IMG/VR virus record: IMGVR_UViG_3300042863_002274
Direction: 5' to 3' (one strand)
DNA from: a virus
DNA: 64,000 bases
Position 1 is the stretch's first letter; each line of letters starts with the position of its first letter. The notes under the pieces are model-generated. The model was not told the DNA's origin. It saw only the letters and a program-made list of their open reading frames with translations, and did no database searches. Shown here one piece after another: positions 30,555 through 57,155 of this stretch. A program made the position numbers and the translations under genes.

Positions 30555-33500
30555 ATGTTGCCTGAACTGTACGAATATAAGTCAACCACGCTCGGAACTT
30601 CCTTTGCGACCAAGGGTGGCTCCATCAACCTAGATGAAGCTCAGGGAATGGTTGAGTGCTTCGTAGCCGGAATAGGCAACAAAGACTCAGTAGGAGACAT
30701 TGTCACTACTGGTGCGTTCACAAAAAGCCTTCAGCGCCGCAAGCCTCGTGTTGTTTGGGGCCACAACTGGAATGACCCAATCGGTAAAGTTTTAGAGATT
30801 TACGAAGTACCAAATACGGACCCAAGATTGCCTTTGAAGATGAAGATGGCAGGAATCGGTGGACTTTTTGCTCGCGTTCAGTTCAACCTTAATTCCGAAA
30901 AAGGTAAAGAAGCATTCGCTATGGTTGCCTTCTTTGGTGAAGAACAAGAATGGTCAATCGGCTATAAGACGCTTCGTGCCCAGTTCGACCAGAAGTCGCA
31001 AGCAAACGTTATTTACGAACTTGAACTGTACGAAGTATCTCCTGTTCTTCACGGAGCAAACCAGCTCACTGGCACTATTTCCGTAAAGTCAGAAGAAGGT
31101 GGATATTCCGGTCCAGTTTCCTATATGGAAGAAGACGAAGAAGAAACCATAAACCGCGCAGAAATTGAAAAGCAATTGGGCTTAATGCTCGGCGCAAAAG
31201 TTTCCTTAATGGACGTAAACGGAGAAGAGCTAACCTTTGCTCGTCGTGCAGATAACGGTGAAGTTGGCCGATACAAGTGCCATTTCAGCGGAGGTCGCGG
31301 ACGATACATGTTTGGAGCACCTGAGCCAATTACGGTTGTTGCACCACGCAGACCATCAGTGCCTATGCCCGGAATGCCAATGATGCCAATTGGGTCTCCA
31401 GGAATGGTGATGAATCAGCCTCAACGCCCCACGCGTCCGCCAGCAATGTCTATGCCTGTTGCGATAAGACCAGGACAAAATGGTCCTCAGATTATCGCGC
31501 TTCCAGCAGTTGAGTACGAAGATGATGATACTCAAGAATTTGACCCAACAAACTTGGACAAAGAAGAAGCAGACCTAAGAGACGCACTTCTCAAGATAAC
31601 AAAACGTCACGGCAAGTTTAATCAAGACTCAGAAGGTGTTTGGGCCGGATACACGCCAGCTGCCGAAAACTCAATTGCTGGCATAGGCGTAAAATGTGCT
31701 AACTGCGTTTTTTATCAAGGTGGCGATAGCTGCAAGATAATTGACATGGAAGTTGAATCAGAAGGAAAGTGCCGTTTTGCCGTCATTCCTAATGGAGTTG
31801 TCAAAGGTGATTCAACAGTCAAAAAGACATACGAAATCGAAGAAGAGTTCACTCAAGAAGACTACGTTTCCGACCTTGAAGTAAAATACCCTGGAGAGTT
31901 AGCAATAGCAGCCCTGCGTGGAGCTATCGGAAGACGTAGAAAAAAGCGTCGTAAGTTCAAGTTGCTAAGCGAGTTTGGTTCGCAAAGTGATTGGCCCGAA
32001 GAGAAGGCATACCTGTTGCCTGTCGTGCCAAAGTTTGCCTTCATGGTCAAGCAGGCCCTAGACCCAATATTTGACTATCACGGCGTTGAGTCTTTTGTAG
32101 ACGTGGATGGAATTGTAATGACGTCTGGCATCAGTTATGACTTAATTGATGCGGTAGATACGGCTGTTGATAACCTAAAAAAAAAGTCTATAAATCAAAA
32201 TGACATCGAATGGAAAGCTGCTAGTTACCGACTTGGTCGTGCTATTGGTGGTCGTTTAACAAATAAACCAAATATTGGTGGAGGCCGTTCGGCCGGTCGA
32301 TTCTTTACGTCAATTGGAGCAGAAGATTTTGACCCATTTAGTGCGCGTGATGCCAACCTAAACGGAATAGTCGGTGAAGGCTTATTCCTTCGTGGTGTTG
32401 CTCTAGCCACTCCAGACCCAACACCGGATGGCCCTGGTTCAATACGCAACCCAAAACCATCCCGCGCTCAAGTACGCAAGCCTGAATCAGAGATTCTTGA
32501 CCGAGCTGGAGACGGCAAAGTCAAGCCTGTCGGCTCAAAACTAAGTAGCGGAAAACTGTTTGACGTTCCACGCATAGACGACCCTGATGTAGATTCTGCG
32601 ACAAAATACGGCTCCGCTGAGTCACAAAGAGACGAGCTTCAAGGCGTACTTGATGGTGCTTCAGACAAAGACCAAATAAAGAGACTAAAGCAAGCTATTG
32701 CTGAACTCGATAAATACATGAAGAGTGTTGAAAAAACGGTCGAAGGGGACATGGAACGCGAAAAGCGTCCAACAAAACCCAAGGCACCACAGGTTCTCAA
32801 CAGAGAAAACACTCAGCTTGCCAGAGGAATAAAGCCTCAGCGTATACCAATCGCTAGTCAATCGATGACAAGCGTAGAACGTTTCTCTTCTGGGAAACTT
32901 CCCGACAAAGCTCAGCTTCCAGAAGGCTCCTCGCAGCTTAAAGAATTCTACGAAGCGATGGCAGAAGACGTAGTGAAGTTGCTCACGGAGTTAATGAACG
33001 ACCCAAATAAAGATAAAAACTGGAAACTTCCATGGCGTCGCCCTGAGCTTTATGCAAGAAACCCTACGCGCGGTCGCGTGTATCAAGGCATGAACCAGAT
33101 GACTCTTGGCTTGGTTGCAAAATCTCGCGGGTACGAACTTCCTCGATGGGCCGGAGAAGGTCAATGGAAAAAGCTTGGTGGAAAACTTAAGCCGGGTGGA
33201 CGAAAGATGGGCGTTTCTATTCTTGTTCCACGAGAAGGACGCACTTTCACAGACATAAACGGCAAGGAAGTCGTCGAGGGGCGCTACTACGAGGTACAAA
33301 CTGTTTATAACGTAGCCGAAGTAGCTGGCCTCCCAAAGAAATTTTATGAACCTATCGATGCGGACATAAATCAAGAAACAAGACTTGAAGATTTAGAAAA
33401 CGTTATTAAGGAAATTGGTCCTGATTTCGTAGAATCATTTGGTGAGGATGCTTTTTATCGCCCATCAACAGACAAGATTCACATGCCTGCTTTTGAACAG

Positions 33501-36500
33501 TTTGTTGATGCTACGGCTTTTTATGGGACAGCAATGCACGAAACCGTTCATTGGACCTCTCACCCAACACGCCTAAACAGAACTTTAGGTAAAGAATTTG
33601 GCGATGAACAATACGCATTTGAAGAACTAATCGCTGAGATAGGTTCAGCGTTCGCGTTGGGCGCAATGGGTATTGAGCCAACAATTAGAGACAATCACCT
33701 TGTTTATGTAGCAGGATGGTTGAAGAAACTGACAGCAGACCCACTTGCCTTGCATAGGGCAATACTTTCAGCCCAACAAGCAAACGACTTCTTGCTAGAC
33801 CGTTCCTCGACAATGCGAAGACTTGCTGGCATCCCGGACGATGAAAGAAAAGGCAAAGACAATGCGTGGCTCGAAGTGCCAATGCTTGCTGGATACGAAG
33901 ACTCTCCAAGAATCAAGCCGACAACAGGCGTAAGCGGCACAATGGAAGACATGCTGGACGTGGAGTTCCCGCAGGACTTCGCACCAGAGGCTAGAAGAAC
34001 GTCTACTGCGGAACGAGAGATGAGTTCTCTTTCACGAAACCTACCAACAAAGACCAAAGATGGAATCGTCATTACTCCGTCTGGAAGACTTTCTAGCGGT
34101 AGAGGCCCAATCAAGGGCAAAAACCCTAATGCGCCAGAAATAAAGCCCATAGATGAGACAGTAGCGCTCAGGCTTGCATTTGGTTTGTCAAACGAGCCAA
34201 CCGAAGAGCAGCGAGACATCATGGCGGTTGCCATGAATCTCATTAGAAACAAAGACCCGCGCATATTGTCTATTCTTGCAGGTGCTGGAACTGGTAAAAC
34301 CACAACGCTAAAGAGCATCGCATGGGGTCTGCAGAGAGAATTCGACCTATGGCCAGAAGGCGACCTTCGGAGACCAGAACAACTCAGATACCTTTCAGAT
34401 AGGTACGGCGTTGATTTCTCTGGCATGTCCGCGGAACAGGTTAAGGAATCTGTAGAAAAACTAGCTGAAGAAAAATCAATAAACAATCTTTACTATGCGG
34501 TATTTAACAAGAAAAATCAATTCGAAGCAGAATTGGAGTTTCCAAGAAATACCGGAGTATCAACAACCGACAAGATTTGGTACTGGTCACTAAAACTAGG
34601 ACAAGGCGACAAAAAATACGGAACAGGAATGCGCAGAAAAATGCAATTCGCATTGATTTCGCCTACTGACAGAAAAGTAAATAATCCCGGAGCCAAGAAT
34701 CCTAAATTCATCAGCGAAGCTCTAACTCCTGACGAACCAGAAAGACTATTGCCACAGCAGGTACGGGAGCTCTTTGATGGAACAACCGAGTCTTTTGATG
34801 GAATTGAACCAGGATACAGAAGTCTTGGTTGGACAAGATTAGATACTGGAAGTGATTGGAAAGAATTTTTAGATTTTGCAGACGAGAAGCGCTGGAAGGG
34901 TCAAGAAACTAGACCAACTTCTGTTCCCATCTTGGACGATAAGGGAAAACCAGTAAGAGACGCTAAGGGAAAAATTCAAACAACAATGGAAGATTCGTCT
35001 GGATTTATTCTTCCAGATGCGGGCTCAACATTTGTCAGTCGAGACCAATTCGGTGACCTTTTTAAAAATGCCCTTACTAGATGGAGTCTTTCAAAAGAAG
35101 AAAAAGCGTCAGCATGGATGTTTACGCAGCCCGCAATACTAACGCAAGAGCTAGATACGCCGCGCGGTTCTGGTAAGGACATCAGCCCTGTTGACACCAT
35201 TTTAGATGAAAAAGATATTCCGGCTCAATGGGTAGAAGCTTTGCAGGAAGCAATAGACAAATTTTCCGATGGGGATAGCAGTATGCTTCCACCAAGAGAT
35301 TCTGTCGCAAAACTGTGGATGCTTACGGAGCCAGACCTTCGCTCAGACCCGGGCTTGATAACGCATACCGAGTCTCAAGAGCGCAAAAAAACTATTCCAG
35401 ATAGCTACGCGGTTGGAGACACGTATGAGCTTGAAGGCGAAACATGGATAGTCAAAACAAGAAAAAAGAGTAAAGGCAAAAACGTTCAAGTTACTCTAAC
35501 CAAGAGAATGGCGACAGAAGAAAAACCACTCAGTGCATTTTTTGTTGACGAGGCGCAAGACTCAAATGAAATTCTTGAAACAGTGCTCGACAACAATAGA
35601 GCCAATCTTCCGATAGTTGTTGTTGGAGATGATAGACAAGCCGTTTATGCGTTTCGTAACGCGAAAAACATCCTTGAATCCCTAAACGCTGACTATGAAT
35701 TAACAATTACCGAATCTTTTAGATACGGAGAAGTAATTGGGCATTTAACGAACCTTGCCTTGGGTATGCAAAACCTTTACCTTGACAAACAGGGCGTCCC
35801 TCAGTTGCCATGGAAACACGTTAAAGGCAAAGCTCAGGTTGTAGTAAACAGACTGTTCGACCCATTGCTTCCTAAAAAAGATAGAAAAGGTCTGGAGCCG
35901 GTTGACGAAATCGACGATATGACTCGTGAGTTCCTTCTTAAGGACTTGGAAGAAAAGTTTTCAACTCCAGAAAAGCGTTTGAATTTCTCTGTACATACGG
36001 TTGGAAAGAAAGCTGGAGAAAAATTAACACGCAAAGAGCAAGATGATAAATTAAGAGAACTAAGAGACTCCATTCTTGAGCCAAAAGCGGGGAAGATAGT
36101 CGACAGGGTTGAGGAAGCAAATAAAGAAGTTCCAAATCTCCCAACCATGATTCTCTGCAGAACCAACGCAGAAATCATTAACGAAACTCTCAAGTTCATT
36201 AAACTTGTCGTCGATAGTCCAAATGCGAAAAAAGATGATAACGGGTTGCCAATTCTGCCAGAAGTAGTCATTCCTTTAAGCAAGCACGAAGAACTTCTAA
36301 AGTTTACGAGACATCTTGAGTACATCTTTATGCCTCAAGCAGAAAAAAGCAAGCGCGGTCTCCCCGAAGTATCGGGATGGATTGGACCCATCTTCGACCA
36401 GGGAGGACTGAAGAGAGTAATAAATCAGGCTTCAGGACAGCAGGCCAGAAGTGCATACAAACTAATAATGCAGGCCCCTCCTGGCGGCGGCGTGCCTCTT

Positions 36501-39305
36501 GGGATATCAGGAATGTTAACCCTTCTTCAGGGCAGACAGAAAATAGAAATAGATGCGAAAACCGGTAAAGAAAAAATTACTGTTATTCCTGCGTCAATTC
36601 TTCCAGAAAGAAAAAGCGTAACGCTTGAGAATTTCAGAATAGAACCAGAAGAAATTGACTCAATATCTAAATTTTCTAAAGCCGCATCCGCCCCTCAAGC
36701 TAAAGAATCTCAACTACAAAGAATTGTAATAATTCCTCCACCCAGCACCTCAACCGATGGTCGAGGTGCTGTATATGCTCAACTTGAAATTATAGGCGGA
36801 GACGAAAAGAAACCCGGAAAACCATCCGGACGCATTATCGTTACCGGTGACGGTGTGGATACCGGTAGACCACAAACACTCCCCGACGGCTCCGAAGCAA
36901 GAAACATACCTCCCAACCAAAGAGTAGGTAACGGTCGCTATAGAAGAGACCTCGAAAAGGTCATCTTGAATCTTGGTTTATCCGACAAGGTAAAGATAAT
37001 GCAAGACGCAGAGAGGGGCGGCCCGCGAGCCGGAGGAAAGCGCAGAGCGTTTGACGGATTTGTAATTGAGGGCGAAAACCTTGAAGAATCAACCAAAATA
37101 TTAAACGACATTGGCCAAGCAATGAGAGATTCGGCTCAAGGCCCTGGTGGAGACGTTGAGATTACGACCATTCAGCTTTCAAAAGGCCGAGAGTCAGATT
37201 TTGTTGCAGTAGCAGAAGACTTGGGAGACCCTAGCGATTCATTGGCTGCAAATATTCCACAAGGACAAGCAGGACTTGCCTTCATGGAGGAAACAAACCT
37301 CATCCATGTGGCGTTTTCTCGTGCGAAAAAAATGATTGACCCAGGTTGGAAGGGGTTCAAGTATTATCTCCACGACGAATCTACAAAAGACGTCAGGGCA
37401 GCAATCAAGAAAGCAGTACAGGACGGCCATATACCGCCAGAACTAGACAAGGGGGCCTTTGGAGACGAAGGCGGTATTCCTCTTCCTAAGTTCTATGCAG
37501 CATTAAACAAGATGAGTCCTGACGATATAGATGAAAATAATCTTCCAGACCGAGCAGCGCTTGATGAAAAAGAAATCGAAATTGACCCCGACCTCGTCTT
37601 TGACGTGGATAAGGATATTAACGATGTCGTTCGTGACCCAAGTGATTACGAATCAGAAGTAGACATAGATGACTTGATTGATGCGGACGAAATGGGAGAC
37701 GATTCTGATGGTCAGATGCGCCTCTCTAGCGGAACCTCAAACTTCCCTGGTCCTGGCCGCCGTCTGTCTAGAAGAATGGGCGTAAGAAGCAGTAGTCGCG
37801 TCACCCCTGGTGCCATAAGTGCTCAAGACCTTGCTGGAATAAGACTCTTTGGAGACCCCAATTCACCCAACAACCGCCGCAAGACGGATTATGCAATGCA
37901 GACGTGGGCTGGATTCAGGGAAAGAGGTATCGAAATAAATGCCGAAGGAAGAGAACAAACAAAAAACGCCATGAAAAAAGTCGGCGAAGCCATGAAGGCT
38001 CGTCAGAACAGGGTTCGGGTTGGGCGAGTTGGAGACAACTTGCGCAATGATAATCCTTCGGCGGAAACATGGATGCTCTCAGTAGACGCTCTCGCAGAGC
38101 AACTTCGCATTCCAGAAGATTTTAATGGCCAGGGCGAATCCCTTCGTTCTCGTTCTGCGACACGACAAGAGATAGCAAGTCTTTTGGGTTTGAGCGAAAT
38201 GGACAAGCAGAAGATTCAAAATTCCGATGCTGGAGTAAACCACGACGCAGTTCGTCTTTTGGTTGCTGAACTTGGAAATCAACCAGAGCTGGCAGGCTGG
38301 CGCTATTTTGCTCCGGTTTCAAGAGACGAAATCAGAAAGATAATTCCATCCCCAACAGGAGACACGGAAAGTATCACCCCCCAAGTGGACATGGCAATGG
38401 AGAATGCCGGTAGGGCAAACATGCGTGACCGTTTCATTATCGAAACGTTCGGCAAAGACGCCTTCCCTCATTGGTTCGACCAAGATGAAGAAGAAGCCAT
38501 TAGTCCAGCCGAGTACTCTCAATTGGGTGAGGTCGACGAGAGGGCGAAGTTCCGTGCAACAGGACGATTTGCCCCCGATGACCCATTTGAGGGCGACTCT
38601 GAAGCCGAAATTGACCTTTATGGACAAAGCTTTGACGAACTTGAGAATCCTCCATCCTTGTCTGCCGATGATGAAATAATCAAACTTGATAAAACAGATA
38701 AAAAAGACTTTGAGATTGAGCCTTTGCTTAAATATCTAGGAATAGATAAGAAAGAGTGGAGAACCAGACTTAGTGAAATTCTTTCTGAAAAGTTTGGAAC
38801 CGATAGTACTGGAGTCAACCCTGAGTGGGAAAAGCAGGGAATCCCAACCGCAACTATTGCTCACATGATTCGTAAAGGAGTCCTGCCAAATGCGGCAGAC
38901 GTCTGGAAGGACGGCAAGGCAGGGAAACTGTTTGACGAAGAGATGGAAAGACCCAAGTATGCGGTTTATGAAGCCCTTAACGAATTCATAGACAGAAGCT
39001 TCCCGAACAGCAGACTCAACAGCAAAGAAAACCGTAACAAAATAGTCGGCGCGACAGATATGGGTACCGCACTTCGCGATGCTGCTGCTGCAAAAGGTTC
39101 AGCCTGGAGTGCAAAGAAAGGCAACGAGCCAAGGTTCGCTGTTTCTGAAATGCAAACAATGGTTGACAGGTTTAACGAGATATTCGGAACGGACCATACT
39201 CTTGAAGACATTTTCAGCGCCGAGCAATTAAGAAACGCTAAAACCAGAATTGAAAACGGCGAAACGCTGTCAGGTAAAAAAAGAAAGCCAAAACAGGCTG
39301 ATTAA
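30555..39305 (+). CDS. Giant polyvalent protein: HK97-type prohead protease, Cys4 domain, ArdC (ssDNA-binding plus zincin), SF1 UvrD-like helicase
   Basis: Protease DSVGD..GAF, WGHNW..PIG, WSIGY, LYEVSPV; ArdC PW..NPTRGRVYQGMNQ and HETVHWTSH..YAFEELIAE; helicase GAGTGKTT (34281), DEAQD (35547), VGDDRQAVYAFR, SFRYG, SKGRE, VAFSRAK. Confidence 0.9.
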   Translation: MLPELYEYKSTTLGTSFATKGGSINLDEAQGMVECFVAGIGNKDSVGDIVTTGAFTKSLQRRKPRVVWGHNWNDPIGKVLEIYEVPNTDPRLPLKMKMAGIGGLFARVQFNLNSEKGKEAFAMVAFFGEEQEWSIGYKTLRAQFDQKSQANVIYELELYEVSPVLHGANQLTGTISVKSEEGGYSGPVSYMEEDEEETINRAEIEKQLGLMLGAKVSLMDVNGEELTFARRADNGEVGRYKCHFSGGRGRYMFGAPEPITVVAPRRPSVPMPGMPMMPIGSPGMVMNQPQRPTRPPAMSMPVAIRPGQNGPQIIALPAVEYEDDDTQEFDPTNLDKEEADLRDALLKITKRHGKFNQDSEGVWAGYTPAAENSIAGIGVKCANCVFYQGGDSCKIIDMEVESEGKCRFAVIPNGVVKGDSTVKKTYEIEEEFTQEDYVSDLEVKYPGELAIAALRGAIGRRRKKRRKFKLLSEFGSQSDWPEEKAYLLPVVPKFAFMVKQALDPIFDYHGVESFVDVDGIVMTSGISYDLIDAVDTAVDNLKKKSINQNDIEWKAASYRLGRAIGGRLTNKPNIGGGRSAGRFFTSIGAEDFDPFSARDANLNGIVGEGLFLRGVALATPDPTPDGPGSIRNPKPSRAQVRKPESEILDRAGDGKVKPVGSKLSSGKLFDVPRIDDPDVDSATKYGSAESQRDELQGVLDGASDKDQIKRLKQAIAELDKYMKSVEKTVEGDMEREKRPTKPKAPQVLNRENTQLARGIKPQRIPIASQSMTSVERFSSGKLPDKAQLPEGSSQLKEFYEAMAEDVVKLLTELMNDPNKDKNWKLPWRRPELYARNPTRGRVYQGMNQMTLGLVAKSRGYELPRWAGEGQWKKLGGKLKPGGRKMGVSILVPREGRTFTDINGKEVVEGRYYEVQTVYNVAEVAGLPKKFYEPIDADINQETRLEDLENVIKEIGPDFVESFGEDAFYRPSTDKIHMPAFEQFVDATAFYGTAMHETVHWTSHPTRLNRTLGKEFGDEQYAFEELIAEIGSAFALGAMGIEPTIRDNHLVYVAGWLKKLTADPLALHRAILSAQQANDFLLDRSSTMRRLAGIPDDERKGKDNAWLEVPMLAGYEDSPRIKPTTGVSGTMEDMLDVEFPQDFAPEARRTSTAEREMSSLSRNLPTKTKDGIVITPSGRLSSGRGPIKGKNPNAPEIKPIDETVALRLAFGLSNEPTEEQRDIMAVAMNLIRNKDPRILSILAGAGTGKTTTLKSIAWGLQREFDLWPEGDLRRPEQLRYLSDRYGVDFSGMSAEQVKESVEKLAEEKSINNLYYAVFNKKNQFEAELEFPRNTGVSTTDKIWYWSLKLGQGDKKYGTGMRRKMQFALISPTDRKVNNPGAKNPKFISEALTPDEPERLLPQQVRELFDGTTESFDGIEPGYRSLGWTRLDTGSDWKEFLDFADEKRWKGQETRPTSVPILDDKGKPVRDAKGKIQTTMEDSSGFILPDAGSTFVSRDQFGDLFKNALTRWSLSKEEKASAWMFTQPAILTQELDTPRGSGKDISPVDTILDEKDIPAQWVEALQEAIDKFSDGDSSMLPPRDSVAKLWMLTEPDLRSDPGLITHTESQERKKTIPDSYAVGDTYELEGETWIVKTRKKSKGKNVQVTLTKRMATEEKPLSAFFVDEAQDSNEILETVLDNNRANLPIVVVGDDRQAVYAFRNAKNILESLNADYELTITESFRYGEVIGHLTNLALGMQNLYLDKQGVPQLPWKHVKGKAQVVVNRLFDPLLPKKDRKGLEPVDEIDDMTREFLLKDLEEKFSTPEKRLNFSVHTVGKKAGEKLTRKEQDDKLRELRDSILEPKAGKIVDRVEEANKEVPNLPTMILCRTNAEIINETLKFIKLVVDSPNAKKDDNGLPILPEVVIPLSKHEELLKFTRHLEYIFMPQAEKSKRGLPEVSGWIGPIFDQGGLKRVINQASGQQARSAYKLIMQAPPGGGVPLGISGMLTLLQGRQKIEIDAKTGKEKITVIPASILPERKSVTLENFRIEPEEIDSISKFSKAASAPQAKESQLQRIVIIPPPSTSTDGRGAVYAQLEIIGGDEKKPGKPSGRIIVTGDGVDTGRPQTLPDGSEARNIPPNQRVGNGRYRRDLEKVILNLGLSDKVKIMQDAERGGPRAGGKRRAFDGFVIEGENLEESTKILNDIGQAMRDSAQGPGGDVEITTIQLSKGRESDFVAVAEDLGDPSDSLAANIPQGQAGLAFMEETNLIHVAFSRAKKMIDPGWKGFKYYLHDESTKDVRAAIKKAVQDGHIPPELDKGAFGDEGGIPLPKFYAALNKMSPDDIDENNLPDRAALDEKEIEIDPDLVFDVDKDINDVVRDPSDYESEVDIDDLIDADEMGDDSDGQMRLSSGTSNFPGPGRRLSRRMGVRSSSRVTPGAISAQDLAGIRLFGDPNSPNNRRKTDYAMQTWAGFRERGIEINAEGREQTKNAMKKVGEAMKARQNRVRVGRVGDNLRNDNPSAETWMLSVDALAEQLRIPEDFNGQGESLRSRSATRQEIASLLGLSEMDKQKIQNSDAGVNHDAVRLLVAELGNQPELAGWRYFAPVSRDEIRKIIPSPTGDTESITPQVDMAMENAGRANMRDRFIIETFGKDAFPHWFDQDEEEAISPAEYSQLGEVDERAKFRATGRFAPDDPFEGDSEAEIDLYGQSFDELENPPSLSADDEIIKLDKTDKKDFEIEPLLKYLGIDKKEWRTRLSEILSEKFGTDSTGVNPEWEKQGIPTATIAHMIRKGVLPNAADVWKDGKAGKLFDEEMERPKYAVYEALNEFIDRSFPNSRLNSKENRNKIVGATDMGTALRDAAAAKGSAWSAKKGNEPRFAVSEMQTMVDRFNEIFGTDHTLEDIFSAEQLRNAKTRIENGETLSGKKRKPKQAD

Positions 39306-39423
39306 AATTTAATTGAACTATCTACTGTTACCAATTCACGCACGTATAGCGTGATAGGTTATAATTAGAGACATTTAATGGTTAATGGTCTATCGGTCAT
39401 TCCTTTGCACTAATAGGAGTTGT

Positions 39424-41067
39424 ATGAATTACGACGAAAAAGTTACAGTAAGCATTGACGGAAACGGCGATGTGCTTAAGTGCGCCAAGGGTGCCTCTAC
39501 TTCCGAATGCGGATACGTCAAGGGTGCAGAGCTTTGCGGTAAGTGCGGCGCTATGCCGGTGGAAATGAAAATGGTTCCAGTAGTCGAACCCGCCGAAGAC
39601 GAAGACATGGAGAACACCGACGAGCCAATGACGGCTGCTCCTATGGCTAAGAAAATGAAAAAGAAAACGAATGGAGCACCTATTGCTATGGGTGACGAAT
39701 CCGACGAACCAGAAATGACCGAAGACGAAATGGCCGCTTTCATGCCAAAGAAGAAAAAGGGCATGGATGTACCCATGTTGGAAGAAGAAGACGAAGAGAA
39801 GATGATGGGCATGTATGCAATGCCTAAGAAGAAAAAAGGAATGGGCGTAGCTCTCCCCGTAATGGAAGAGGACGAAGAGGACGAAGAAATGAAGGGTATG
39901 GGAATAATGCCTGACGAAACTTACGCAGAAGACGAAGAAACGCCTTTGAAGAGAAAGAAAAAAGGCATGGGTGCATCCATGATGGATGACGAAGAAGAAG
40001 AAGAAGAAGTCTTGGACAAAGAAGACATGGCTGTAGAAGGCATGGACCCTGAAGATGAAGATGAAGATGATGAAGAAGAAGAAGAAGAAGAGGATGAAGA
40101 CGCAGAACTAGGTGTTAAGTCGTTTTCTGCTCGCGATTCTGAATGGGAAATGATTCGTCAGTCACGTATAAAGTCGCTTGGCCTCAAAGCTTCTGACGTT
40201 GGTGTTTCTGGTTATCTTTGTGCTCTTGAGCGTAAAGCTTATGGTGGTTCTTCTCCTGTTTGTGATGACTGCCCTGGCGGTTGTGTGTCCGAAAAAGGAA
40301 TGCCTGGAATTCTCCACGTTGAAGGAATGGCTGAAAAGATGTTCGACGGAGTCGTTGTAGATTCTGGATACTCGTCAGATGCAGACATGTTCGTAATTGA
40401 CGTGCAAGTTAAAGATGGTTCAATTAATGAAGTTTTCGTAGACGGAAGCAGCGCAGAAATGCTTGGATTCCACAAGCTTGACTCTTCAAGCTTTGAGCAG
40501 AAATCAGAAGTCGGTGCGTACACTCTTGTTGACTTCACGGAAGCAGCAGAAATAGCAGTTAAGTCAATTGACGGAACAGTTATCGCAGTAGAGCCTGACG
40601 TGTTCGAAGGTTTTGATGCTTACGCTGTAGAAATAGAAGGATTTGACGGCAAGTCCTACGATGTGTTCGTCGCACTAGACGGAGAAGTTCTCGGTTACGA
40701 CAAGTACGAAGCAGACGAGATTGAGGACATTGAAGCAGAGGCTGCAGAGATAGCTATCAAGCAAGCCTTTTCTGAAGAACGTCGTATGGAAATGGCCAAG
40801 GAAGGAACCGCTCTTGAAGACGGTTCATACCCAATCGCTACAGAGACTGACCTAAGAAACGCAATCCAAGCCTATGGCCGCGCAAAAGATAAAGAAGCAG
40901 CAAAGAAGCACATCATGAAGCGAGCTCAGGCGTTGAAGCTTGAAAGTCTTATTCCTGGTAACTGGTTAGCAGGTAGTGACGAAAAGAGTCAAGATGTTAG
41001 CGATGCAGAGTTCATGGCTTCCCTTGTTGAGTTTCAATTGCTTGAAGATTCAGTCGACGAAATCTAG
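39424..41067 (+). CDS. Acidic head-module protein (scaffold-like candidate) with Cys motifs and PepSY-like repeats
   Basis: AGGAG RBS before MNYDEK at 39424; D/E/M-rich low complexity with KKKGM repeats; C-terminal DGSYPI..DLRNAI motif. Confidence 0.6.
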   Translation: MNYDEKVTVSIDGNGDVLKCAKGASTSECGYVKGAELCGKCGAMPVEMKMVPVVEPAEDEDMENTDEPMTAAPMAKKMKKKTNGAPIAMGDESDEPEMTEDEMAAFMPKKKKGMDVPMLEEEDEEKMMGMYAMPKKKKGMGVALPVMEEDEEDEEMKGMGIMPDETYAEDEETPLKRKKKGMGASMMDDEEEEEEVLDKEDMAVEGMDPEDEDEDDEEEEEEEDEDAELGVKSFSARDSEWEMIRQSRIKSLGLKASDVGVSGYLCALERKAYGGSSPVCDDCPGGCVSEKGMPGILHVEGMAEKMFDGVVVDSGYSSDADMFVIDVQVKDGSINEVFVDGSSAEMLGFHKLDSSSFEQKSEVGAYTLVDFTEAAEIAVKSIDGTVIAVEPDVFEGFDAYAVEIEGFDGKSYDVFVALDGEVLGYDKYEADEIEDIEAEAAEIAIKQAFSEERRMEMAKEGTALEDGSYPIATETDLRNAIQAYGRAKDKEAAKKHIMKRAQALKLESLIPGNWLAGSDEKSQDVSDAEFMASLVEFQLLEDSVDEI

Positions 41068-41082
41068 GAAGGGAGCACCACC

Positions 41083-44000
41083 ATGGTGGATGCCCCTATA
41101 AATAGGGAAAGAATCGTAGTTTCGGCGCGGCTTATCGTGCCTTTGTCGTGCTGCGGTGGATTCAACGAAAAAGCACTTCGCTTTAGGCAGTCAATAAATT
41201 CTTCTGTATCTACTGGAAGACTAGAGCCAGAACTTGCATTAAAAGCAGTCGGTGACGTTTTTAGTTTAAGAAAAAAAACAGCCGAAGATACTGATAATAA
41301 AAAAAGAGAATTCACTGGAGACACTCGTCCCGGTGTTGCCTCAAATGAGTTCGGCTATCGCTGGGACAAATCAGCCAAGTGGGAACCAGGCTCTCGTCTT
41401 GTCATAAGCCCGTCGTATACGTCGCGCATGGGAATGGGAACCATGCCGAACGTGGGTTGGATTCCTAGAGACGAAAATCAACCAAAGTCTTTTCAGGAAA
41501 TGATTTCGAGAATTCAATCAGAACCTCAGATTCAGTTACGAAAATTTAAAGTAAATCCAAAAACTGACGACATAATCCCTGAGTCAGAAAAGATAATTGA
41601 CCCTTTTGCTATTTCTTCCGGCATGACCATGGAAGAAAGACGAAATGCTCAAAGAAAATATCAAATCGATAATCCTGAAGAAAAAAGACTTCCAGGCGCG
41701 AGTCTTGAATCACGAGTTCCGGGAGGCTCTCTTTTAAGTAGAGCAGCAGCTGTTTTTGGTATCCTGAGAGACGAGAACAACAAGTTTCGATGCCCTCCAG
41801 GAACTCCGGCAGCAAATCAGTTCACTGACGCAACTGGTTCCAACTGCTTCGGTTTTAGTGCTTCAAAGTTTTCACGTTTCGCAGCAAGGGAAGCAGCCAG
41901 ACTTACGGCAGAAGGCGAATACGAGGGGTTGAGAACAAACGCTAATGCTTTTTTTGGTTACCTATACGGCGGCAGTCAACAAGCAAGAGGCGTTGCAAGT
42001 CCAGAGTTTATTTCCCGATGCGCATACTGGGAAGACCTTTATGGAGACAAATTAAAGCCGCCTTCATGGCGCGACACCCCTGTCACAGAAAATCTTCGTC
42101 TGTTCAAAAACGGAGCAATACGTGCACAGGACGATATTGCGAGACAAAAAGCCTCAGCAGTACGTATCTATGATGCTTTAGGAATCGACCCCAGTGACCC
42201 AAATGCTCATTTCCAGGCTGTCGAAAAATTACAGAAGATGCATGTTGATAGTGACGGTGCTGCTGGATGGGACTTAAAGATTTTAAACACTTCTTCTGGT
42301 GGAGACGCATCTCGTCTAACTGATTTAGAAGTCAGAGAGTTTACTGAAGCAAGACTTAAATCAGTTTCAGGGTGGAATCGTTTATCAAACGAAGAACAAA
42401 AAAGACTTATTGATTCTGACATTAGAAGGTATCAAGAGACAGAACGAGCAATGTTCGAAACACTCTTGGACCAATTCATGCAAAATCCATCAACAGCGAG
42501 AGTGCTTGGAAGAGTTGAATATAACTTTTTATCTGATGACGAAGCTGGAACAGGAATGTACAGAGATGCCCCCTCTATTGTTCCACGATTAAAACCAGAC
42601 GGAACACCAGTTCTTGACAAAGCCGGCAACCCCGTAATGGGCAAAGTTCCCGGAGAACTACGTAGCGTTATTCATATAAACATGAAAGAAATTCTACAAA
42701 ATCAAGAAACAATGCTTCCAAACATGGGACCAGATGAAAGATTGGCAATTTCTGCGATTGGCGCACGAAGCGAAGCCGAAGGTCGTTTAGCGGTTGCAGA
42801 TTTTCTTGTCAACGTAGACCATACCGCAAGAGGAATGGCTGGACTAATTGATGGTGTCTACTCTTTCTCTAGTCACATCATGCTTCACGAGCACGCACAT
42901 AGTATTCAGCTTCAAGTATTCATGGCGAAAATTCAAGAACAGATAGACAGCAAAGGTTTCATATCTGTTCCCATAGTAGACAGAAACGGAATCGTTAAAG
43001 GGACAAGAAACGTAGACTCAATCTACAGACTGTCCGGCGATGACGTTATGGCGATAATGACCGACGTAGCGGACGACATAAACCTGGATTCCTTAAAAGA
43101 CGCCATGGAGCGCATCAAATCTGTGGCACCTCTTGCTGGAGCGTATCCAAGAGATGCATACAAAGAAGGCTCAGAGGTTTGGGCTCTTGAAGTAGCAGCA
43201 GAACTACACGCCCTTCGCGCGAGAGGCATAATATACGGAGACGACATTGACGCAGCTTTAGCCTTTATGGACGACATAGGCGATAGTAGAGCGTCGATTG
43301 ACAGAGCTCTTGGTGACGAGACCGCAGCGCTTGTTGACATGGACGACGTGTTCACTATTCGTCCAGACTCCGTCGTTCCGGACGGCATGCCGGAAGAATC
43401 CATAACAGAAGCGCTAGGGGACAGGGACGAACGCATTGCTTCTGCTCTTCGTGAGGAAATAAAACAATTCAAGACGGGATTCAAAGACCTTCCTGAAGAT
43501 GAAATGATTTCAGAAGCTGCAATTATTGAATCTCAGAGAGATGCTTCAAATAACACGTTAAAGAAACTTAATGATTTCGAGATTGACCCGTCCCTGCCTG
43601 AAGACGAGAAAGAGTCAATAAGGGGATATCTAGAGAATCTTAAGAAGCAAACGCAAATGGAATTGGACTTCCACGACACTAGATACAACGAAGCATCAAA
43701 AGCGTGGAGAAAAAAGTACGGCATCGGAGCTAGAGGAGAAAAAGACAGATTTAAAGAATCCGTTAAGGCAGTCCGTGAAAGAGAAGGACTGTTTGATGAT
43801 GTTGAAATTGAAGAACTTGCAAAAATAGCAGCTCTCGACGACCTTCGTAAGTCTGTAGAAAAAATGCCAGAGAAGAAGATAATTCGACGCCTGGCTGATG
43901 ACGAAATATACCTAAGCACTCTTGACCCATCTTCCGACGAGGCTAAAAACCTAATTGAAAAGATTGACGTCATAAAAGAGCAGTATGTACAAAACATGCG

Positions 44001-47000
44001 TGACGCAGGAGACAAGTCGACGACTGCCAAATTAAAGAAAAACCTAGACCAGAGTGTTAAGGATTTAATTTCTCCTCCAGCAAAAAAGAACGTGTCCTTA
44101 AAGAGCAAGCAAGAAGCAAAAGACCACGCAACAAAAGAACGTCGCCGGGTTCGCGGAACTGCAGAGCAGAAAAAAGCAGTCAAAGAACTCGGAGACATTG
44201 CATCTTCGGACGTAGGACAACTGCTTGACCCTGCGGCTCAGACCAGGGCCGGAAGAGCAATAAACAAAAGAAACGCCAGAATAAAGAGATTGGGACTTAC
44301 GGTTGATGAAAAATCATCTGAAGAAGGCGACGTTGTCCAGCAAGTTCAAAATTTGCTAATTCCAGTCATGGAAGTAATCGACGGAACGTCTATTGCTGAC
44401 CCGTTCGAGATAGAAACAGTTATTGATTTCGATTCAGGAGTTCTACGAGGAAAAATTGAAGGCAAAGAAATTGAAATGCCTCAATTTGTTTCCGGCAAGG
44501 TTCTGACGACGAAAACAAAAAAGCTGGACATGCCAGAAAAAGGAATTCGCGACAAAGAAACTGGGAAAACCGCTCGCCGCGTAGTTGTACAGGTTCGCGA
44601 GGGAGACAGAGGCCTCTTTCCTTCAGCAGGAGAAGACGACCAACGCTTTGTTGCTCCACCTGGACGCCTTCGCATTACGGGGATAGACCCCGACGGAACA
44701 GTAAGAGCAGAGTTGTCTTATCAAAAAGACTCTGTTGAGGTCATTGACTCCATGGCATACAGTTTGGAGACAAACAAAACTGATGCAATTTGGGCGCAGA
44801 GCCACGGTAAAAAAATCAAAGCAGTAGCAGACAAGTACGTTAACTCGCGCCGTGAATCAGGTAAGGAATCTACGGGTTCAAGAAGTGATTACGATTCCGT
44901 CTCAGAAACCTCAAGCAAAACAGTTGTAGACGAGGTTGTGGACGCTGGTGGTTCTTTCGGAGAAGGTTTTGACGAACTACCCCCTCACTTGTCGTCTGAT
45001 GACTCAAGTTCCCGCTTGTCTTCTGGAAAGAAAGACGTACTGGGCGCTCCCGCTACGCGCAAGCAAAGAACAGAATTAAGAAATAAGTCAATGTCTTCTC
45101 AGGTTAGGGAAGTTAAATCCATTCTTGGAGGAGGACAGGGGGACTCGGCTGACCCACTGTCAAGGGGTGACATCCACCCAGACGTTGCTCGTTTAATCGC
45201 CGATACTCCAGAAGAAGACCTGTTAGCAAGAGCCGAGAATACTGCATACAGAATGCATGAAGGTTTCGATAGAAGAGTACGTGTTCGCGCAACAGATGAC
45301 GACATTGAGAGACTTTCTTCCACGGGCTCCATAAGGTCCCCGTTTGCTTCTCCAGACGATGAAGCAAAAAGAACATCACGCAGAGCGCAAAGATACTCAG
45401 GAATGGGTCCAGACGAGCGCTCTTCAAGACTGTCTTCCGGCCGAACTATTGATTCTTCAGAGAATTTAGCTGAAAGAAAAAGGCAAGAAAAAGAAGTTGC
45501 AGTTAAGGCTTTTGAAATATTTGACAAAGTCCTTAACGCCGACGGAAAAAACTTAGACGACATGTCCGAAGCAGAACTCTCTGCGTCTTTCGGTGGGAAA
45601 GTAAAGAAATCTAAGAGAAAATCAGTAAGTGCTACAAACGACTCGCTTTATGAAGTGGACGACGTGCCGACAGCTATTGCGTTAATGATGTTGGGGCATC
45701 ACGTTGCTGTTAAAGACCAGGACCTAAGATTGACCGAGCAATCACAAAAAGCATTTGAAGAAGAAGTTAAAAATGCTGCAAAGAAACATATTGACGCCCA
45801 AAACCCTCACCCTAAATGGGTTCAGTATCAAGAACAGTATAAAAAAGATTCTCCAGATTTAGACTATGGAGACCCTGCAGTTGTCAAGGAAATGGAAAAG
45901 AACTACGTAGACAGCTATCAAGCAGACCTTTGCGCTTTGTATAGTCCGGCACAAAACTTGCTGTGCTCGGGGCATATCGGTATTGATAGAGAAAAAATGC
46001 CTCAGACAAACGGAAGGTCTGCAGGCTACGATACTGTCGCGGTAAGAGCGCTTAAAGCCGGAGAAGCCGCCGGAAAGTTTGAACCTGCAAAGACTATAAA
46101 AAGAAACGCTGCAGTAGACGCAGAGTTCGCAGAAGAACTTAATGCAGCAGTAATTAAAGCCAACGCTGGTCTAGTCAAAAAGGGTAAACCAGAATTAACA
46201 GACGAAGAGATTTCAAAAAAACTTTATGAGATAGTTTCAGAAAAACATTCATTAAGGAATCAATTTGGGGACAAAACACAAGAACAACACAAGGGTGATT
46301 CTTACGACAAAATGTCTGATGCTTCGAAAAATTGGCTATATGAAAACACTGACTGGAACGACACTGAAGTAAACTTGGAGACACCATTCATAGAATGGCT
46401 AAATGGAGTTATTGAGCCAGAAAACGGCGAACCTTCGGTAATCCTTAAAGAGGTAAATCCTGGTGATTATGCTCCATCACAGCAGCAGCTAGTTGCATCA
46501 AAAGTAGACGGTACCGCTAGGCAAATACAAGAAAAAGCCATAGAAGTTGCCGAGGGCATAAGAGCTGATAATCCTGGAATATCGGACGAAGACTTTAGAA
46601 CAAAATACCTAGAAGAAATGAAAAAGCAATGGTTTATGCAGCCCATCCTTACTGCAAGTGATGGGTTTATTGTTGACGGTCACCATAGGTGGGCAGGAAT
46701 AAACGTAGGAAACAGTTCACTTTCGGAAGAATTACGACTCCCTTTGAATGTTAATGAAATACAAACGGACATAATTGAAGCTTTGACCCTAGGAAAAATC
46801 TTCCAAGACGCTTGGGGTATTAAAGAAGCGCGCCTTGGAGCTGAAAACAAGTGGAAAGAGGGAGAAATAACCGACATTAGTAAAAACGAAATATCTCAAC
46901 TCATGGACGGTTTGACCAAAAACGTGGGCACCCTTGTGGACGAAAAGTACGCAGAAGGAAATTTTGTTCAGCTTGGCTCGATTGGTCTTTCAAACAATCC

Positions 47001-48252
47001 AGACTACGCAGCACGAGCCAAGGAAAGACAGACTAGTGCTCTGACAAGAAGACCCGGCCCAGCAGCAAGAGCTCGTGAACTAGAGCTTGATGCAGCCATT
47101 CGTGATGCAGGGAGACAACGTTCGCCAGATGCTCCCGCGGAAAGAGAATCTGTTGGCAGATTGGCAAAAATGCGTAAAGGAAAGAGACTTAGTAGTGGAA
47201 AGACTATCGATGCTCCCGCTTCAGGCAAGACGGTAGGAATGTCTCCTAAAAACTACGCAAGCGAATATTATTCAAGAATAGGTCTACCAAGCTCTCTTGA
47301 CCCAGACATGATGCCAGTAAGTGGATATCTCGTTCATAAATCTCACATAGATGCAAAACGTGCTCAGATTACAAAAGGCGGAATGCCTGGAAATCTCAGA
47401 CCAGATGGTGTGTTTGAAGTAGGGGACGAAGATTTAGTTGGAGACGGCCTAACGGCCTTGGGTGATATGGAAATAGTTTTGCGCCCTGGAGTGTCAAACC
47501 GGGTCGCTTACGGACGAGGCAATGCTCTCACTTCGGCTCACAGGCCCGTAATGCTTAACTCACGTAACAGGGACGACGTAGCTGACGCAATCCTTAATGC
47601 CGACGGAGTAAACGCTGAAGAAACAAAACGAGAAGCCCTTTTACACATGCTCTCTTCTTCTTTGAATAACGATTTTTCAAACGCAAACGCATCAAGAAGC
47701 TCTAGTGGAAAAATGCCATCTTCGTTCGACAAGAAACTACCCGAAGGCTCCACCAGGGAACCTTTTGAGGCTCAGATTTTGGGCGGATTTGACGTTGCTG
47801 ATATCGAACAAATAAACGTTCCGTTGAGCAAGATTGAGGCCGCCTCGGCGAAAGAAGACATTTCCGACGTTGTTGATGCCGTATCGATTGCTGACAAGTT
47901 AAGAAAAGCCGGATTTTCTCAAGAAGAAATTGAATACTTTTACTCTATGGGCGGGGGACAATCGTTAGATACAGCAAGCATGTCTATGCTGCGTAAATAC
48001 AGAGCGTCACAAAAGATGAAAGACGACTTTGCCAAGCGTGGTCTGAATAATGTCAAGTTTGCTCACCCGAATGGTTTCAATATTGAAGACGCTCGTTCTC
48101 ACTCTAAGAGCGCCAAAGCAGGCCAGTCTGTTGAGTCAACCCTCAAGGACTCTATAGCTGAGGAAATTATTGCAGCAGCGAAAGACTTGCTCAAAGAAAT
48201 GAAAAAAACAAACAAGCCAAAAGTTACATCTATATTCGGAGGAAAACTATGA
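41083..48252 (+). CDS. Giant polyvalent protein: zincin, ART-like, ParB/Srx and DUF3626-like domains
   Basis: HEHAH (42886)..EVAAE; FVSG..VVVQVREG..PPGRLRI; PSQ..PILTASDGFIVDGHHRW (46675); PVSGYL..EAQILGG..DIEQI. Confidence 0.75.
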   Translation: MVDAPINRERIVVSARLIVPLSCCGGFNEKALRFRQSINSSVSTGRLEPELALKAVGDVFSLRKKTAEDTDNKKREFTGDTRPGVASNEFGYRWDKSAKWEPGSRLVISPSYTSRMGMGTMPNVGWIPRDENQPKSFQEMISRIQSEPQIQLRKFKVNPKTDDIIPESEKIIDPFAISSGMTMEERRNAQRKYQIDNPEEKRLPGASLESRVPGGSLLSRAAAVFGILRDENNKFRCPPGTPAANQFTDATGSNCFGFSASKFSRFAAREAARLTAEGEYEGLRTNANAFFGYLYGGSQQARGVASPEFISRCAYWEDLYGDKLKPPSWRDTPVTENLRLFKNGAIRAQDDIARQKASAVRIYDALGIDPSDPNAHFQAVEKLQKMHVDSDGAAGWDLKILNTSSGGDASRLTDLEVREFTEARLKSVSGWNRLSNEEQKRLIDSDIRRYQETERAMFETLLDQFMQNPSTARVLGRVEYNFLSDDEAGTGMYRDAPSIVPRLKPDGTPVLDKAGNPVMGKVPGELRSVIHINMKEILQNQETMLPNMGPDERLAISAIGARSEAEGRLAVADFLVNVDHTARGMAGLIDGVYSFSSHIMLHEHAHSIQLQVFMAKIQEQIDSKGFISVPIVDRNGIVKGTRNVDSIYRLSGDDVMAIMTDVADDINLDSLKDAMERIKSVAPLAGAYPRDAYKEGSEVWALEVAAELHALRARGIIYGDDIDAALAFMDDIGDSRASIDRALGDETAALVDMDDVFTIRPDSVVPDGMPEESITEALGDRDERIASALREEIKQFKTGFKDLPEDEMISEAAIIESQRDASNNTLKKLNDFEIDPSLPEDEKESIRGYLENLKKQTQMELDFHDTRYNEASKAWRKKYGIGARGEKDRFKESVKAVREREGLFDDVEIEELAKIAALDDLRKSVEKMPEKKIIRRLADDEIYLSTLDPSSDEAKNLIEKIDVIKEQYVQNMRDAGDKSTTAKLKKNLDQSVKDLISPPAKKNVSLKSKQEAKDHATKERRRVRGTAEQKKAVKELGDIASSDVGQLLDPAAQTRAGRAINKRNARIKRLGLTVDEKSSEEGDVVQQVQNLLIPVMEVIDGTSIADPFEIETVIDFDSGVLRGKIEGKEIEMPQFVSGKVLTTKTKKLDMPEKGIRDKETGKTARRVVVQVREGDRGLFPSAGEDDQRFVAPPGRLRITGIDPDGTVRAELSYQKDSVEVIDSMAYSLETNKTDAIWAQSHGKKIKAVADKYVNSRRESGKESTGSRSDYDSVSETSSKTVVDEVVDAGGSFGEGFDELPPHLSSDDSSSRLSSGKKDVLGAPATRKQRTELRNKSMSSQVREVKSILGGGQGDSADPLSRGDIHPDVARLIADTPEEDLLARAENTAYRMHEGFDRRVRVRATDDDIERLSSTGSIRSPFASPDDEAKRTSRRAQRYSGMGPDERSSRLSSGRTIDSSENLAERKRQEKEVAVKAFEIFDKVLNADGKNLDDMSEAELSASFGGKVKKSKRKSVSATNDSLYEVDDVPTAIALMMLGHHVAVKDQDLRLTEQSQKAFEEEVKNAAKKHIDAQNPHPKWVQYQEQYKKDSPDLDYGDPAVVKEMEKNYVDSYQADLCALYSPAQNLLCSGHIGIDREKMPQTNGRSAGYDTVAVRALKAGEAAGKFEPAKTIKRNAAVDAEFAEELNAAVIKANAGLVKKGKPELTDEEISKKLYEIVSEKHSLRNQFGDKTQEQHKGDSYDKMSDASKNWLYENTDWNDTEVNLETPFIEWLNGVIEPENGEPSVILKEVNPGDYAPSQQQLVASKVDGTARQIQEKAIEVAEGIRADNPGISDEDFRTKYLEEMKKQWFMQPILTASDGFIVDGHHRWAGINVGNSSLSEELRLPLNVNEIQTDIIEALTLGKIFQDAWGIKEARLGAENKWKEGEITDISKNEISQLMDGLTKNVGTLVDEKYAEGNFVQLGSIGLSNNPDYAARAKERQTSALTRRPGPAARARELELDAAIRDAGRQRSPDAPAERESVGRLAKMRKGKRLSSGKTIDAPASGKTVGMSPKNYASEYYSRIGLPSSLDPDMMPVSGYLVHKSHIDAKRAQITKGGMPGNLRPDGVFEVGDEDLVGDGLTALGDMEIVLRPGVSNRVAYGRGNALTSAHRPVMLNSRNRDDVADAILNADGVNAEETKREALLHMLSSSLNNDFSNANASRSSSGKMPSSFDKKLPEGSTREPFEAQILGGFDVADIEQINVPLSKIEAASAKEDISDVVDAVSIADKLRKAGFSQEEIEYFYSMGGGQSLDTASMSMLRKYRASQKMKDDFAKRGLNNVKFAHPNGFNIEDARSHSKSAKAGQSVESTLKDSIAEEIIAAAKDLLKEMKKTNKPKVTSIFGGKL

Positions 48253-56581: not shown

Positions 56582-56656
56582 TGGTGCCCCATGAGAGAAT
56601 CGAACTCCCGTAAAATGCTTAGAAGGCATTGACTTTATCCACTAAGTTAATGGGGC
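56582..56656 (-). tRNA. tRNA-Arg(UCU), intact, CCA encoded
   Basis: GCCCCAT/ATGGGGC acceptor stem; AATGC-CTTCTAA-GCATT anticodon arm; GGGAG-TTCGATT-CTCTC T arm; ACCA. Confidence 0.93.
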
Positions 56657-57076: not shown

Positions 57077-57117
57077 ATTTAAATTGTACACATTTGGGAT
57101 TCTGACCATTGTTACTT

Positions 57118-57155
57118 TTAGAAGTCTGTTGCCTTATCCCTTGGGCCACCGACGC
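57118..57155 (-). pseudogene. 5' half of disrupted tRNA-Arg(UCU)
   Basis: GCGTCGG-TG-GCCCAAGGGATAAGGC-A-ACAGA-CT-TCT-AA, then tRNA similarity stops. Confidence 0.85.

Follow-up and report, generated by a model that had tools for sequence, protein, structure and literature searches.

The DNA considered here is a 64,000-nucleotide stretch (the window) of an 83.9-kb phage record in IMG/VR, IMGVR_UViG_3300042863_002274, judged to be about half complete, and the subject is a short peptide, written as [RK][LF]SSG in an initial annotation of the window, which divides several very large proteins of this phage into modules. On the plus strand lies a head module that runs from a portal through the 2916-residue polyprotein P0001 (30555..39305), a 560-residue protein, the 2389-residue polyprotein P0002 (41083..48252) and several small genes to an HK97-type capsid protein. 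On the minus strand lies a contractile-tail module with terminase, sheath, tube and assembly chaperone, then a 1577-residue gene in the position of the tape measure. I found the peptide 18 times in four proteins of the record, namely P0001, P0002, a third giant (P0003) and the tape measure protein (P0004), and in no other open reading frame (ORF) of at least 80 residues in that record.

P0001 consists of a conserved anchor of about 660 residues and four cargo modules. The anchor contains a Peptidase_S78 (HK97-type prohead protease) domain at residues 32-175 (30648..31079, plus strand), which belongs to PF04586 with 43.5 bits against a cut-off of 21. Its His70, Ser134 and His166, which I take to be the catalytic candidates, are invariant in 17 diverse homologues of 47-78% identity. 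A leader sequence (32208..32429) precedes the first junction, KLSSG at residues 662-666 (32538..32552), which ends the anchor. The second junction, RFSSG at residues 776-780 (32880..32894), forms the N-terminal edge of a cassette (32895..34085), a full unit of the ArdC-like anti-restriction type, made of ArdC-N (PF08401, residues 797-888) and MPTase-PolyVal (PF18818, residues 946-1069, 133 bits). The third, RLSSG at residues 1178-1182 (34086..34100), stands between this cassette and a UvrD/SF1 helicase (34101..37718; PF00580, PF13245 and PF13538, approximately residues 1228-2259), and the fourth, RLSSG at residues 2389-2393 (37719..37733), is followed by a 523-residue C-terminal module that is conserved in relatives and whose function is unassigned. 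The expectation that these sites lie in disordered linkers is borne out by an AlphaFold model of residues 630-1230. All three of the junctions that it covers are in or at the edge of stretches with a predicted local distance difference test score (pLDDT) below 50, which extend up to the first junction and occupy model residues 548-554 at the third, and these linkers separate two confidently modelled parts, a helical hairpin and the ArdC module (pLDDT about 70-95 for the latter).

P0002 combines a 1310-residue, junction-free anchor with three cargo modules. It matched no family in Pfam or PHROGs, and its anchor is common to 152 cluster representatives. The anchor ends at an RLSSG (residues 1311-1315, 45013..45027, plus strand) that is aligned with a junction in relatives, and two more copies of RLSSG follow on the same strand, at residues 1449-1453 (45427..45441) and 2035-2039 (47185..47199). 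The leader of P0001 is absent; instead, P0002 has a mini-domain, RCPPGTP..FTD..SNC (41788..41847, plus strand), that is the most conserved element of the family and is invariant in 52 sequences. In the form RCPxG..FTD..SxC, with two invariant cysteines, the mini-domain also occurs at residues 128-150 of an otherwise unrelated 675-residue ORF of the head module (49394-51421). The pair recurs in the related genome G001, and G002 and G007 also gave single matching instances. The mini-domain may be a common tag for head targeting or metal binding.

The claim that the sites fall at domain boundaries stands in so far as Pfam domains lie between sites and never across one. The ParB module that was placed between 45427 and 47185 is at most a tentative assignment. 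This region (P0002 residues 1454-2034) has no Pfam match at E-values up to 1 and no sequence match in the PDB, and its language-model neighbours, which include ParBc_2 and ParB_N clusters at 0.86-0.87, are weak leads only.

The other two carriers lie outside the head module. P0003 is a 3009-residue giant just past the end of the window (68068-77097 of the record), where it adjoins primase-helicase and helix-turn-helix genes. Its nine copies of the peptide accompany two GNATs, a DEDD exonuclease, a HEFGH zincin, a pentapeptide-repeat region of about 250 residues that is possibly a DNA mimic, and a small Cys/His domain. P0004 (8918..13651, minus strand) is assigned as the tape measure protein by its position, with PHROG matches for sheath, tube and chaperone directly upstream, and it contains a Gly-zipper and hydrophobic segments. 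It matched no tape-measure family in PHROG or Pfam, nor any cultured phage by tblastn. Its first junction, KLSSG at residues 35-39 (13535..13549, minus strand), is a conserved alignment column that reads KLSSG, KLSSG, RLASG, RFSSG and KFSSG in five relatives. Its second, RLSSG at residues 561-565 (11957..11971, minus strand), opens a hypervariable Gly/Ser-rich middle. The peptide is present near residue 36 in 5/5 and near residue 570 in 5/5, at the second site within a region that is otherwise unalignable. The hypervariable middle, rich in Gly, Ser and Arg, begins directly behind this junction and extends for about 270 residues (approximately 565-830). The C-terminal end of P0004 (approximately residues 1470-1520) is strongly conserved and rich in His and Asp, and from its sequence I read it as a motif resembling those of cell-wall peptidases.

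All seven copies that the initial annotation listed in P0001 and P0002 are where it placed them, with the kinds of codons it gave, and it was right that they far exceed what residue frequencies would produce. Composition predicts 0.033 copies, 20000 shuffles never yielded more than two, and the Poisson probability is about 8e-15. The count itself was too low by eleven, of which nine are in P0003 and two are the tape-measure copies, found by a six-frame scan inside the window at 13549 and 11971 on the minus strand. Since 17 of the 18 copies are different 15-mers and both classes of serine codon (TCN and AGY) are used, conservation is at the level of the protein, as had been proposed, and a DNA repeat is ruled out. 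Chance or composition as the source of the peptide is also ruled out, by the shuffles, by enrichment in homologues and by the counts in carriers against the rest of the proteome.

The N-terminal 660 residues of P0001 have about 296 homologues, 1600-5100 residues long and all with the same protease anchor, of which 120 were retrieved. These 120 giants contain [LFIMV]SSG 1268 times, with up to 21 copies in a single protein, and LSSG 1037 times where 11 would be expected, a 95-fold enrichment. The peptide tolerates Leu, Phe or Met at its first position and Ser or Ala at its second (GLASG in some lineages), and accepts only Ser at the third and only Gly at the fourth. The residue ahead of this core (R, K, G or S) appears to depend on the lineage. 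The motif as first written therefore keeps its [LF]SSG part, within a conserved core better given as [LFM][SA]SG, and loses its fixed basic residue. In the homologues inspected the first junction lies near residues 600-735, mostly at about 650-670, just past the conserved anchor. Junctions follow one another at a median distance of 140 residues, with a range from 5 to 1534 and occasional tandem copies, and the hydrophobic fraction of their flanks is 0.19 vs 0.27.

The suggestion that the peptide marks module boundaries is supported, and the peptide is conserved in several hundred homologues. The ArdC-N and MPTase cassette occurs in 102 homologues at positions anywhere from residue 700 to residue 3930, and in 102/102 a junction stands within about 14 residues of its N-terminal edge, with another behind it unless the cassette ends the protein. 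In near relatives (93% identity) the P0002 homologue has an extra insertion of 500 residues together with one added junction. G002 encodes the module behind the last junction of P0002 as a gene of its own, and there the Cys/His domain of P0003 stands by itself as an ORF of 128 residues. Given such mobile cassettes, insertions and modules found as separate genes, the giants are strings of exchangeable units joined by the peptide.

I also fetched four complete relatives (151-173 kb, with terminal repeats), and in each of them repeated copies occur almost exclusively in the S78-anchored giant, the P0002-like protein, the P0003-like protein and the tape measure. G007 lacks a P0003-like giant and has three further ORFs with two copies each. 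In a set of five genomes the carriers contain 15-31 copies where 1.1-1.6 would be expected, and the remainder of each proteome is close to chance, with 0-8 copies for an expectation of 2.3-4.9. Several non-carrier ORFs of 900-2100 residues have no copy, and the evidence for depletion of the motif in non-carrier proteins is mixed across the five genomes.

A second shared element is the leader of about 90 residues, which ends the anchors of S78 giants and opens the P0003-like giants, in both cases just ahead of the first junction. Its consensus is RLGR..G.R..[DN]RP.IG..GR ... D.[DN].[DN]G.V.EG. It is a candidate for an address tag used in loading or for a docking site of whatever reads the junctions.

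Searching with this leader led to sister lineages whose capsid proteins are 62-71% identical to that of this phage, and in these the junction peptide is replaced by quite different ones. G[ML]RS is used by G016, with 19 copies in the S78 giant and 5 in its P0002-like partner, and by G017, with 5 copies in each of two giants. G018 has FAS[NA], with 4 copies in the S78 giant. On contig L192 the peptide is LRSSG, with 6 copies in the P0002-like protein and 5-6 in a neighbouring protein of 1930 residues. Contig L193 has LTGAM: its P0002-like protein carries 6 copies of the LTGA type, LTGAM in 4 cases, and its 824-residue S78 protein has one ITGAM after the leader. In the G[ML]RS, FAS[NA] and LTGAM lineages, too, the leader stands ahead of the first junction. 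The tape measures switch together with the giants in all three sister lineages examined for this (G016, G017 and G018): GMRS in G016 and GMKS in G017 lie in the Gly-rich middle of the protein, in place of the second LSSG site, and FASA in G018 lies near residue 40, equivalent to the first. In the S78 giant of G016 there is also a GGMR at about residues 185-190, right after the S78 domain, that has no Ser behind it and was not scored; the first scored junction of that giant is at residue 585.

The capsid protein (52936-54303, plus strand) behaves differently from the carriers. Its Pfam capsid match starts only at residue 179, which leaves a long N-terminal leader ahead of it, and no code peptide was found in the capsid protein of this phage or in those of the LSSG and G[ML]RS lineages. 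A conserved QL[ST]SRE at residues 94-99 was considered as a site and rejected: LSSR is not an enriched variant, and no GMRS stands there in the G[ML]RS lineages. The initial annotation had proposed a signal for cleavage or ejection that releases effectors from head-module polyproteins. What remains of this is a boundary signal at the protein level that fits processing; a signal of the head module or of capsid maturation does not agree with a tail tape measure that carries the motif twice, a capsid protein that carries none and a third carrier beside replication genes.

What, then, reads the peptide? Coherent switching in unrelated proteins of one genome argues for one reader, encoded by the phage rather than a conserved host enzyme, and such a reader probably serves all of the carriers. 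I regard it as rather probable overall, judging from these sequence patterns, that the junction is a proteolytic site. That it is the recognition site of a sequence-specific endopeptidase, encoded by the phage and co-evolving with its sites, also seems probable. The leading candidate for this enzyme, put forward tentatively and at somewhat below an even chance, is a predicted zincin in the P0002 anchor.

The predicted gluzincin core of this anchor (42130..43332, plus strand) contains HEHAH at 42886-42900 and, downstream, Glu703 and Glu707; H602, E603, H606, E703 and E707 are invariant in 52 diverse sequences. Among the 25 best structural matches to an AlphaFold2 model of the core (pLDDT 80.7), almost every one is a zinc metallopeptidase or a zincin-like domain. 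The top match is the catalytic region of lethal factor (1yqy_A, Z 9.8, root-mean-square deviation (rmsd) 9.8 Å over 220 residues), followed at Z 5.6-6.4 by a putative metal-dependent hydrolase and the Pro-Pro endopeptidases, among them PPEP-3 (Z 6.2) and PPEP-2 (Z 5.6); the quality of these alignments is modest. By sequence and model together, the anchor thus has what characterizes a gluzincin, an HExxH with a downstream Glu in a zincin fold. A Foldseek search of the anchor model against the PDB gave nothing significant, a viral structure library yielded a single match to the same model, an uncharacterised protein of an uncultured phage, and Pfam gave no sequence-level relation to M34. The P0002-type anchor never holds a junction in the alignments of relatives and sister lineages, and the zincin is present in 10/10 related records searched. 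Invariant catalytic residues, a zinc-peptidase fold, a fixed anchor free of junctions and presence in ten records together speak for the zincin. Between code lineages it is 27-37% identical and 6/36 conserved columns are changed, a divergence that leaves room for changes in specificity. Prediction of a complex between the zincin core and a 38-residue junction peptide gave 0.27 against a mark of 0.32 and counts neither way.

Two other domains were set aside as readers. The C-terminal Cys/His domain of P0003 is missing in G001, G005 and G007, and G002 has it as an isolated 128-residue ORF. The HEFGH zincin module of P0003 is unlikely, with no detectable copy in G007. The probability that remains falls to a phage protein so far unrecognised.

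Several points weigh against this interpretation. The group is known from uncultured phages alone, and cleavage is something I infer from sequences. The zincin diverges within the LSSG lineage too (35-68% identity) while the code there is fixed, and its divergence is therefore not specific to code changes. Its likeness to M34 is modest (Z 9.8 at an rmsd of 9.8 Å, the others Z 5-6.4, and nothing from Foldseek). Packaging of P0002 and P0003 is deduced from gene position and the shared leader only. Finally, so strict a linear motif might also belong to an enzyme that modifies its target without cutting it.

If the peptide is cut, the following sequence of events can be proposed. Each giant, which consists of an anchor, the first junction and then interchangeable cassettes (ArdC, helicase, GNATs, exonuclease, the pentapeptide-repeat module and others), would be loaded into the head through its anchor or leader and leave via the tail, behind the tape measure. 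The four carriers would travel with or ahead of the DNA. The phage zincin would cut the junctions where its substrates meet, either before assembly, in the cytoplasm of the cell that makes the particles, or after ejection, inside the next cell to be infected. Since the tape measure is marked as well, cutting would probably take place where head cargo and tape measure can meet. ArdC, helicase, acetyltransferases, exonuclease, the pentapeptide-repeat module and other cassettes would then be freed as separate proteins. Cutting ahead of the Leu, Phe or Met would fit a zincin whose P1' pocket is hydrophobic, and cutting behind the invariant Ser would fit a serine protease. In a more specific version, which is conceivable and rather doubtful, a dedicated zincin in a virion-protein anchor waits until all its substrates are out of the particle and in the newly infected cell, and only there unpacks the giants and cuts the tape measure. 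Each lineage would then have its own pair of protease and peptide (LSSG, GMRS, FASN, LRSSG, LTGAM), together a natural collection of orthogonal pairs.

Among the alternatives, the one that survives best dispenses with cutting altogether. The peptide might be a site of docking or modification, used by a serine-modifying enzyme or in the loading and threading of unfolded chains through portal and tail. The carriers, the tape measure among them, are expected to pass through the tail, and the central Ser is kept in most variants (LSSG, GMRS, FASN, LRSSG), as this explanation would have it. Yet the LTGAM variant has no Ser, and the sites bound independently folding cassettes that elsewhere are separate genes. 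Their irregular, domain-sized spacing and tandem copies also suit the release of modules better than periodic docking. I therefore consider it unlikely.

The second alternative is the reader proposed in the initial annotation, the S78 prohead protease, which would read the code and cut cargo inside the procapsid in the manner of T4 gp21 and the phiKZ/SPN3US protease. It is fused to a code-bearing polyprotein in about 296 homologues, and assemblin-fold head proteases favour a hydrophobic P3 with a fixed small P1, which a Phi-x-S pattern fits. In HK97-type phages, however, the N-terminal capsid leader is the expected substrate of the head protease, and it has no code peptide in any lineage examined, whereas the tape measure, which is expected to assemble outside the head, has conserved sites that switch with the lineage. 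Nor does the domain follow the code. It is 76-79% identical in the G[ML]RS and FAS[NA] lineages, compared with 82-90% within the LSSG lineage; only 3/112 conserved columns differ in the G[ML]RS lineages, and it looks equally conserved in the LTGAM lineage. An enzyme that stays nearly constant while the peptide becomes quite different is an unlikely reader of that peptide. One K57E charge change common to both G[ML]RS lineages keeps this alternative alive, at what I would call a slim chance.

A third possibility, and a poor one, is that the ArdC-linked MPTase-PolyVal zincin of P0001 processes the giants, as has been proposed for polyvalent proteins (PMC5512222). Besides this published proposal it has in its favour a strong Pfam match and presence in 5/5 LSSG genomes examined and in G016. 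The domain is itself, however, a mobile cassette flanked by junctions at variable positions, and together with ArdC-N the peptidase makes up a complete ArdC-like unit, so that no additional role is required to account for it. According to the Pfam lists it is lacking from about 20 of the S78 giants that carry the code, and PF18818 was not found in the 91-kb G017 record, G018 or G020, all three of which are fragments; the G017 record nonetheless contains giants with the code, and its tape measure has a near-code peptide. Recognition by a host protease, finally, is very improbable: delivered proteins do meet host enzymes, and the phage protease is itself a prediction, but no fewer than three quite different peptides are in use among phages with 62-91% identity between their capsid proteins, which suggests a reader that evolves with the phage lineage and not a conserved host enzyme.

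How does this arrangement compare with known systems? In T4 and the phiKZ/SPN3US phages, capsid protein, scaffold and cargo are all cut by the head protease at one and the same motif. The internal proteins and Alt of T4 (cut by gp21) and the ejection proteins of phiKZ and SPN3US (gp175/gp245) resemble the giants, as interpreted here, in being loaded and ejected cargo with a short cleavage motif, and in having an N-terminal address element (the capsid-targeting sequence of T4) ahead of the first cut. The giants differ in that the code is on the tape measure and missing from the capsid protein (in the LSSG and G[ML]RS lineages), and in that the head protease is near-constant across the switches, so that they do not look like head-protease cargo of the T4/phiKZ type; the motifs in those systems are also of the Leu/Ile-x-Glu and Ala-x-Glu types. 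Motif-coded cutting of capsid cargo by head proteases as such is established for T4 and phiKZ/SPN3US (PMC5694885, PMC10052503). The M34 zincins (lethal factor, PPEP-2 and PPEP-3), the best structural matches, share the HExxH and the downstream Glu with the P0002 anchor, in contrast to which there is no relation by Pfam or Foldseek, and the domain here sits inside a 1310-residue virion-module anchor. Lethal factor and the Pro-Pro endopeptidases are endopeptidases for defined short sequences in flexible regions. In picornaviruses (3C), adenoviruses and African swine fever virus one viral protease reads a short consensus between modules, in the latter two inside the particle. Those proteases belong to unrelated families, and the substrates here are effector cassettes and a tail protein rather than replication or core proteins.

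The closest precedent is that of the polyvalent proteins, which are very long, combine ArdC-N, the zincin MPTase, helicase and other conflict domains, and are encoded by phages that possess a portal-terminase system; their packaging, injection and processing by zincins within them have been predicted (Iyer et al. 2017, PMC5512222). P0001, with S78, ArdC-N, MPTase and UvrD in one chain and with portal and terminase nearby, is such a protein, as is P0003 with its GNATs, exonuclease, zincin and pentapeptide repeats, and the domains are strung together in the same manner. A term search of PMC5512222 found no mention of a recognition site, a prohead protease or a linker motif. The giants differ from that description in having a strict, countable, lineage-switching peptide that is also on the tape measure, and in an MPTase that looks like cargo and not like the reader. 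A literature search for RLSSG or LSSG with phage found nothing relevant. The idea of packaged, injected and peptidase-processed polyvalent proteins is thus already known (PMC5512222); new are the explicit and strict junction peptide, its presence in the tape measure and not in the capsid protein, and its switching while the head protease stays constant.

The nearest matches among described phages are Gordonia and Brevibacterium myoviruses, whose portal and S78 protease are about 40-44% identical to those of this phage (portal 28374-30428, plus strand, in the head module). Against 50,697 phage records (megablast and tblastn), searches with the giants and the tape measure either came back empty or matched nothing beyond the portal and S78 domains, and no cultured relative with a proteome was found among these records. 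The matched Gordonia and Brevibacterium myoviruses show no repeated LSSG in their tape measures or head-module proteins.

Some neighbouring genes deserve mention. The 560-residue protein between P0001 and P0002 (39385-41067, plus strand) has a Cys-rich, zinc-ribbon-like N-terminus, a very acidic, Met-rich middle of low complexity and a C-terminal half that is conserved. The protein matched no family, its position is preserved in every sister lineage examined, and it could be a scaffold or an internal head protein. Directly upstream of the capsid gene is a 223-residue DUF3721 ORF (52103-52774). In the G[ML]RS lineages DUF3721 is the opening domain of code-bearing proteins of 913-2281 residues that have the leader and contain Zeta-toxin-like, pentapeptide or ArdC modules; in this phage it stands alone, without cargo. 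The window also has a class II (B12-type) ribonucleotide reductase gene (58354-60279), with two HNH endonuclease genes and a tRNA-Arg(TCT) directly downstream of it (56582-58349, minus strand). A PAPS-reductase-like gene (20569-21708, minus strand) lies between the tail and terminase genes.

Even if the junctions are not cut, the strictness of the peptide and its coherent switching still point to an unknown enzyme that acts on ejected proteins. If they are cut, the set of mature effectors that these phages deliver could be read directly from sequence, about 20 modules here and hundreds across the group. To my knowledge, no protease that processes the tape measure is known in most phages, and the shared marking of head cargo and tape measure would link release of the cargo to tape-measure processing. 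The lineage-specific codes would then be candidate orthogonal pairs of protease and site for protein engineering. For one group of phages, the question of how giant polyvalent proteins are deployed would be settled.

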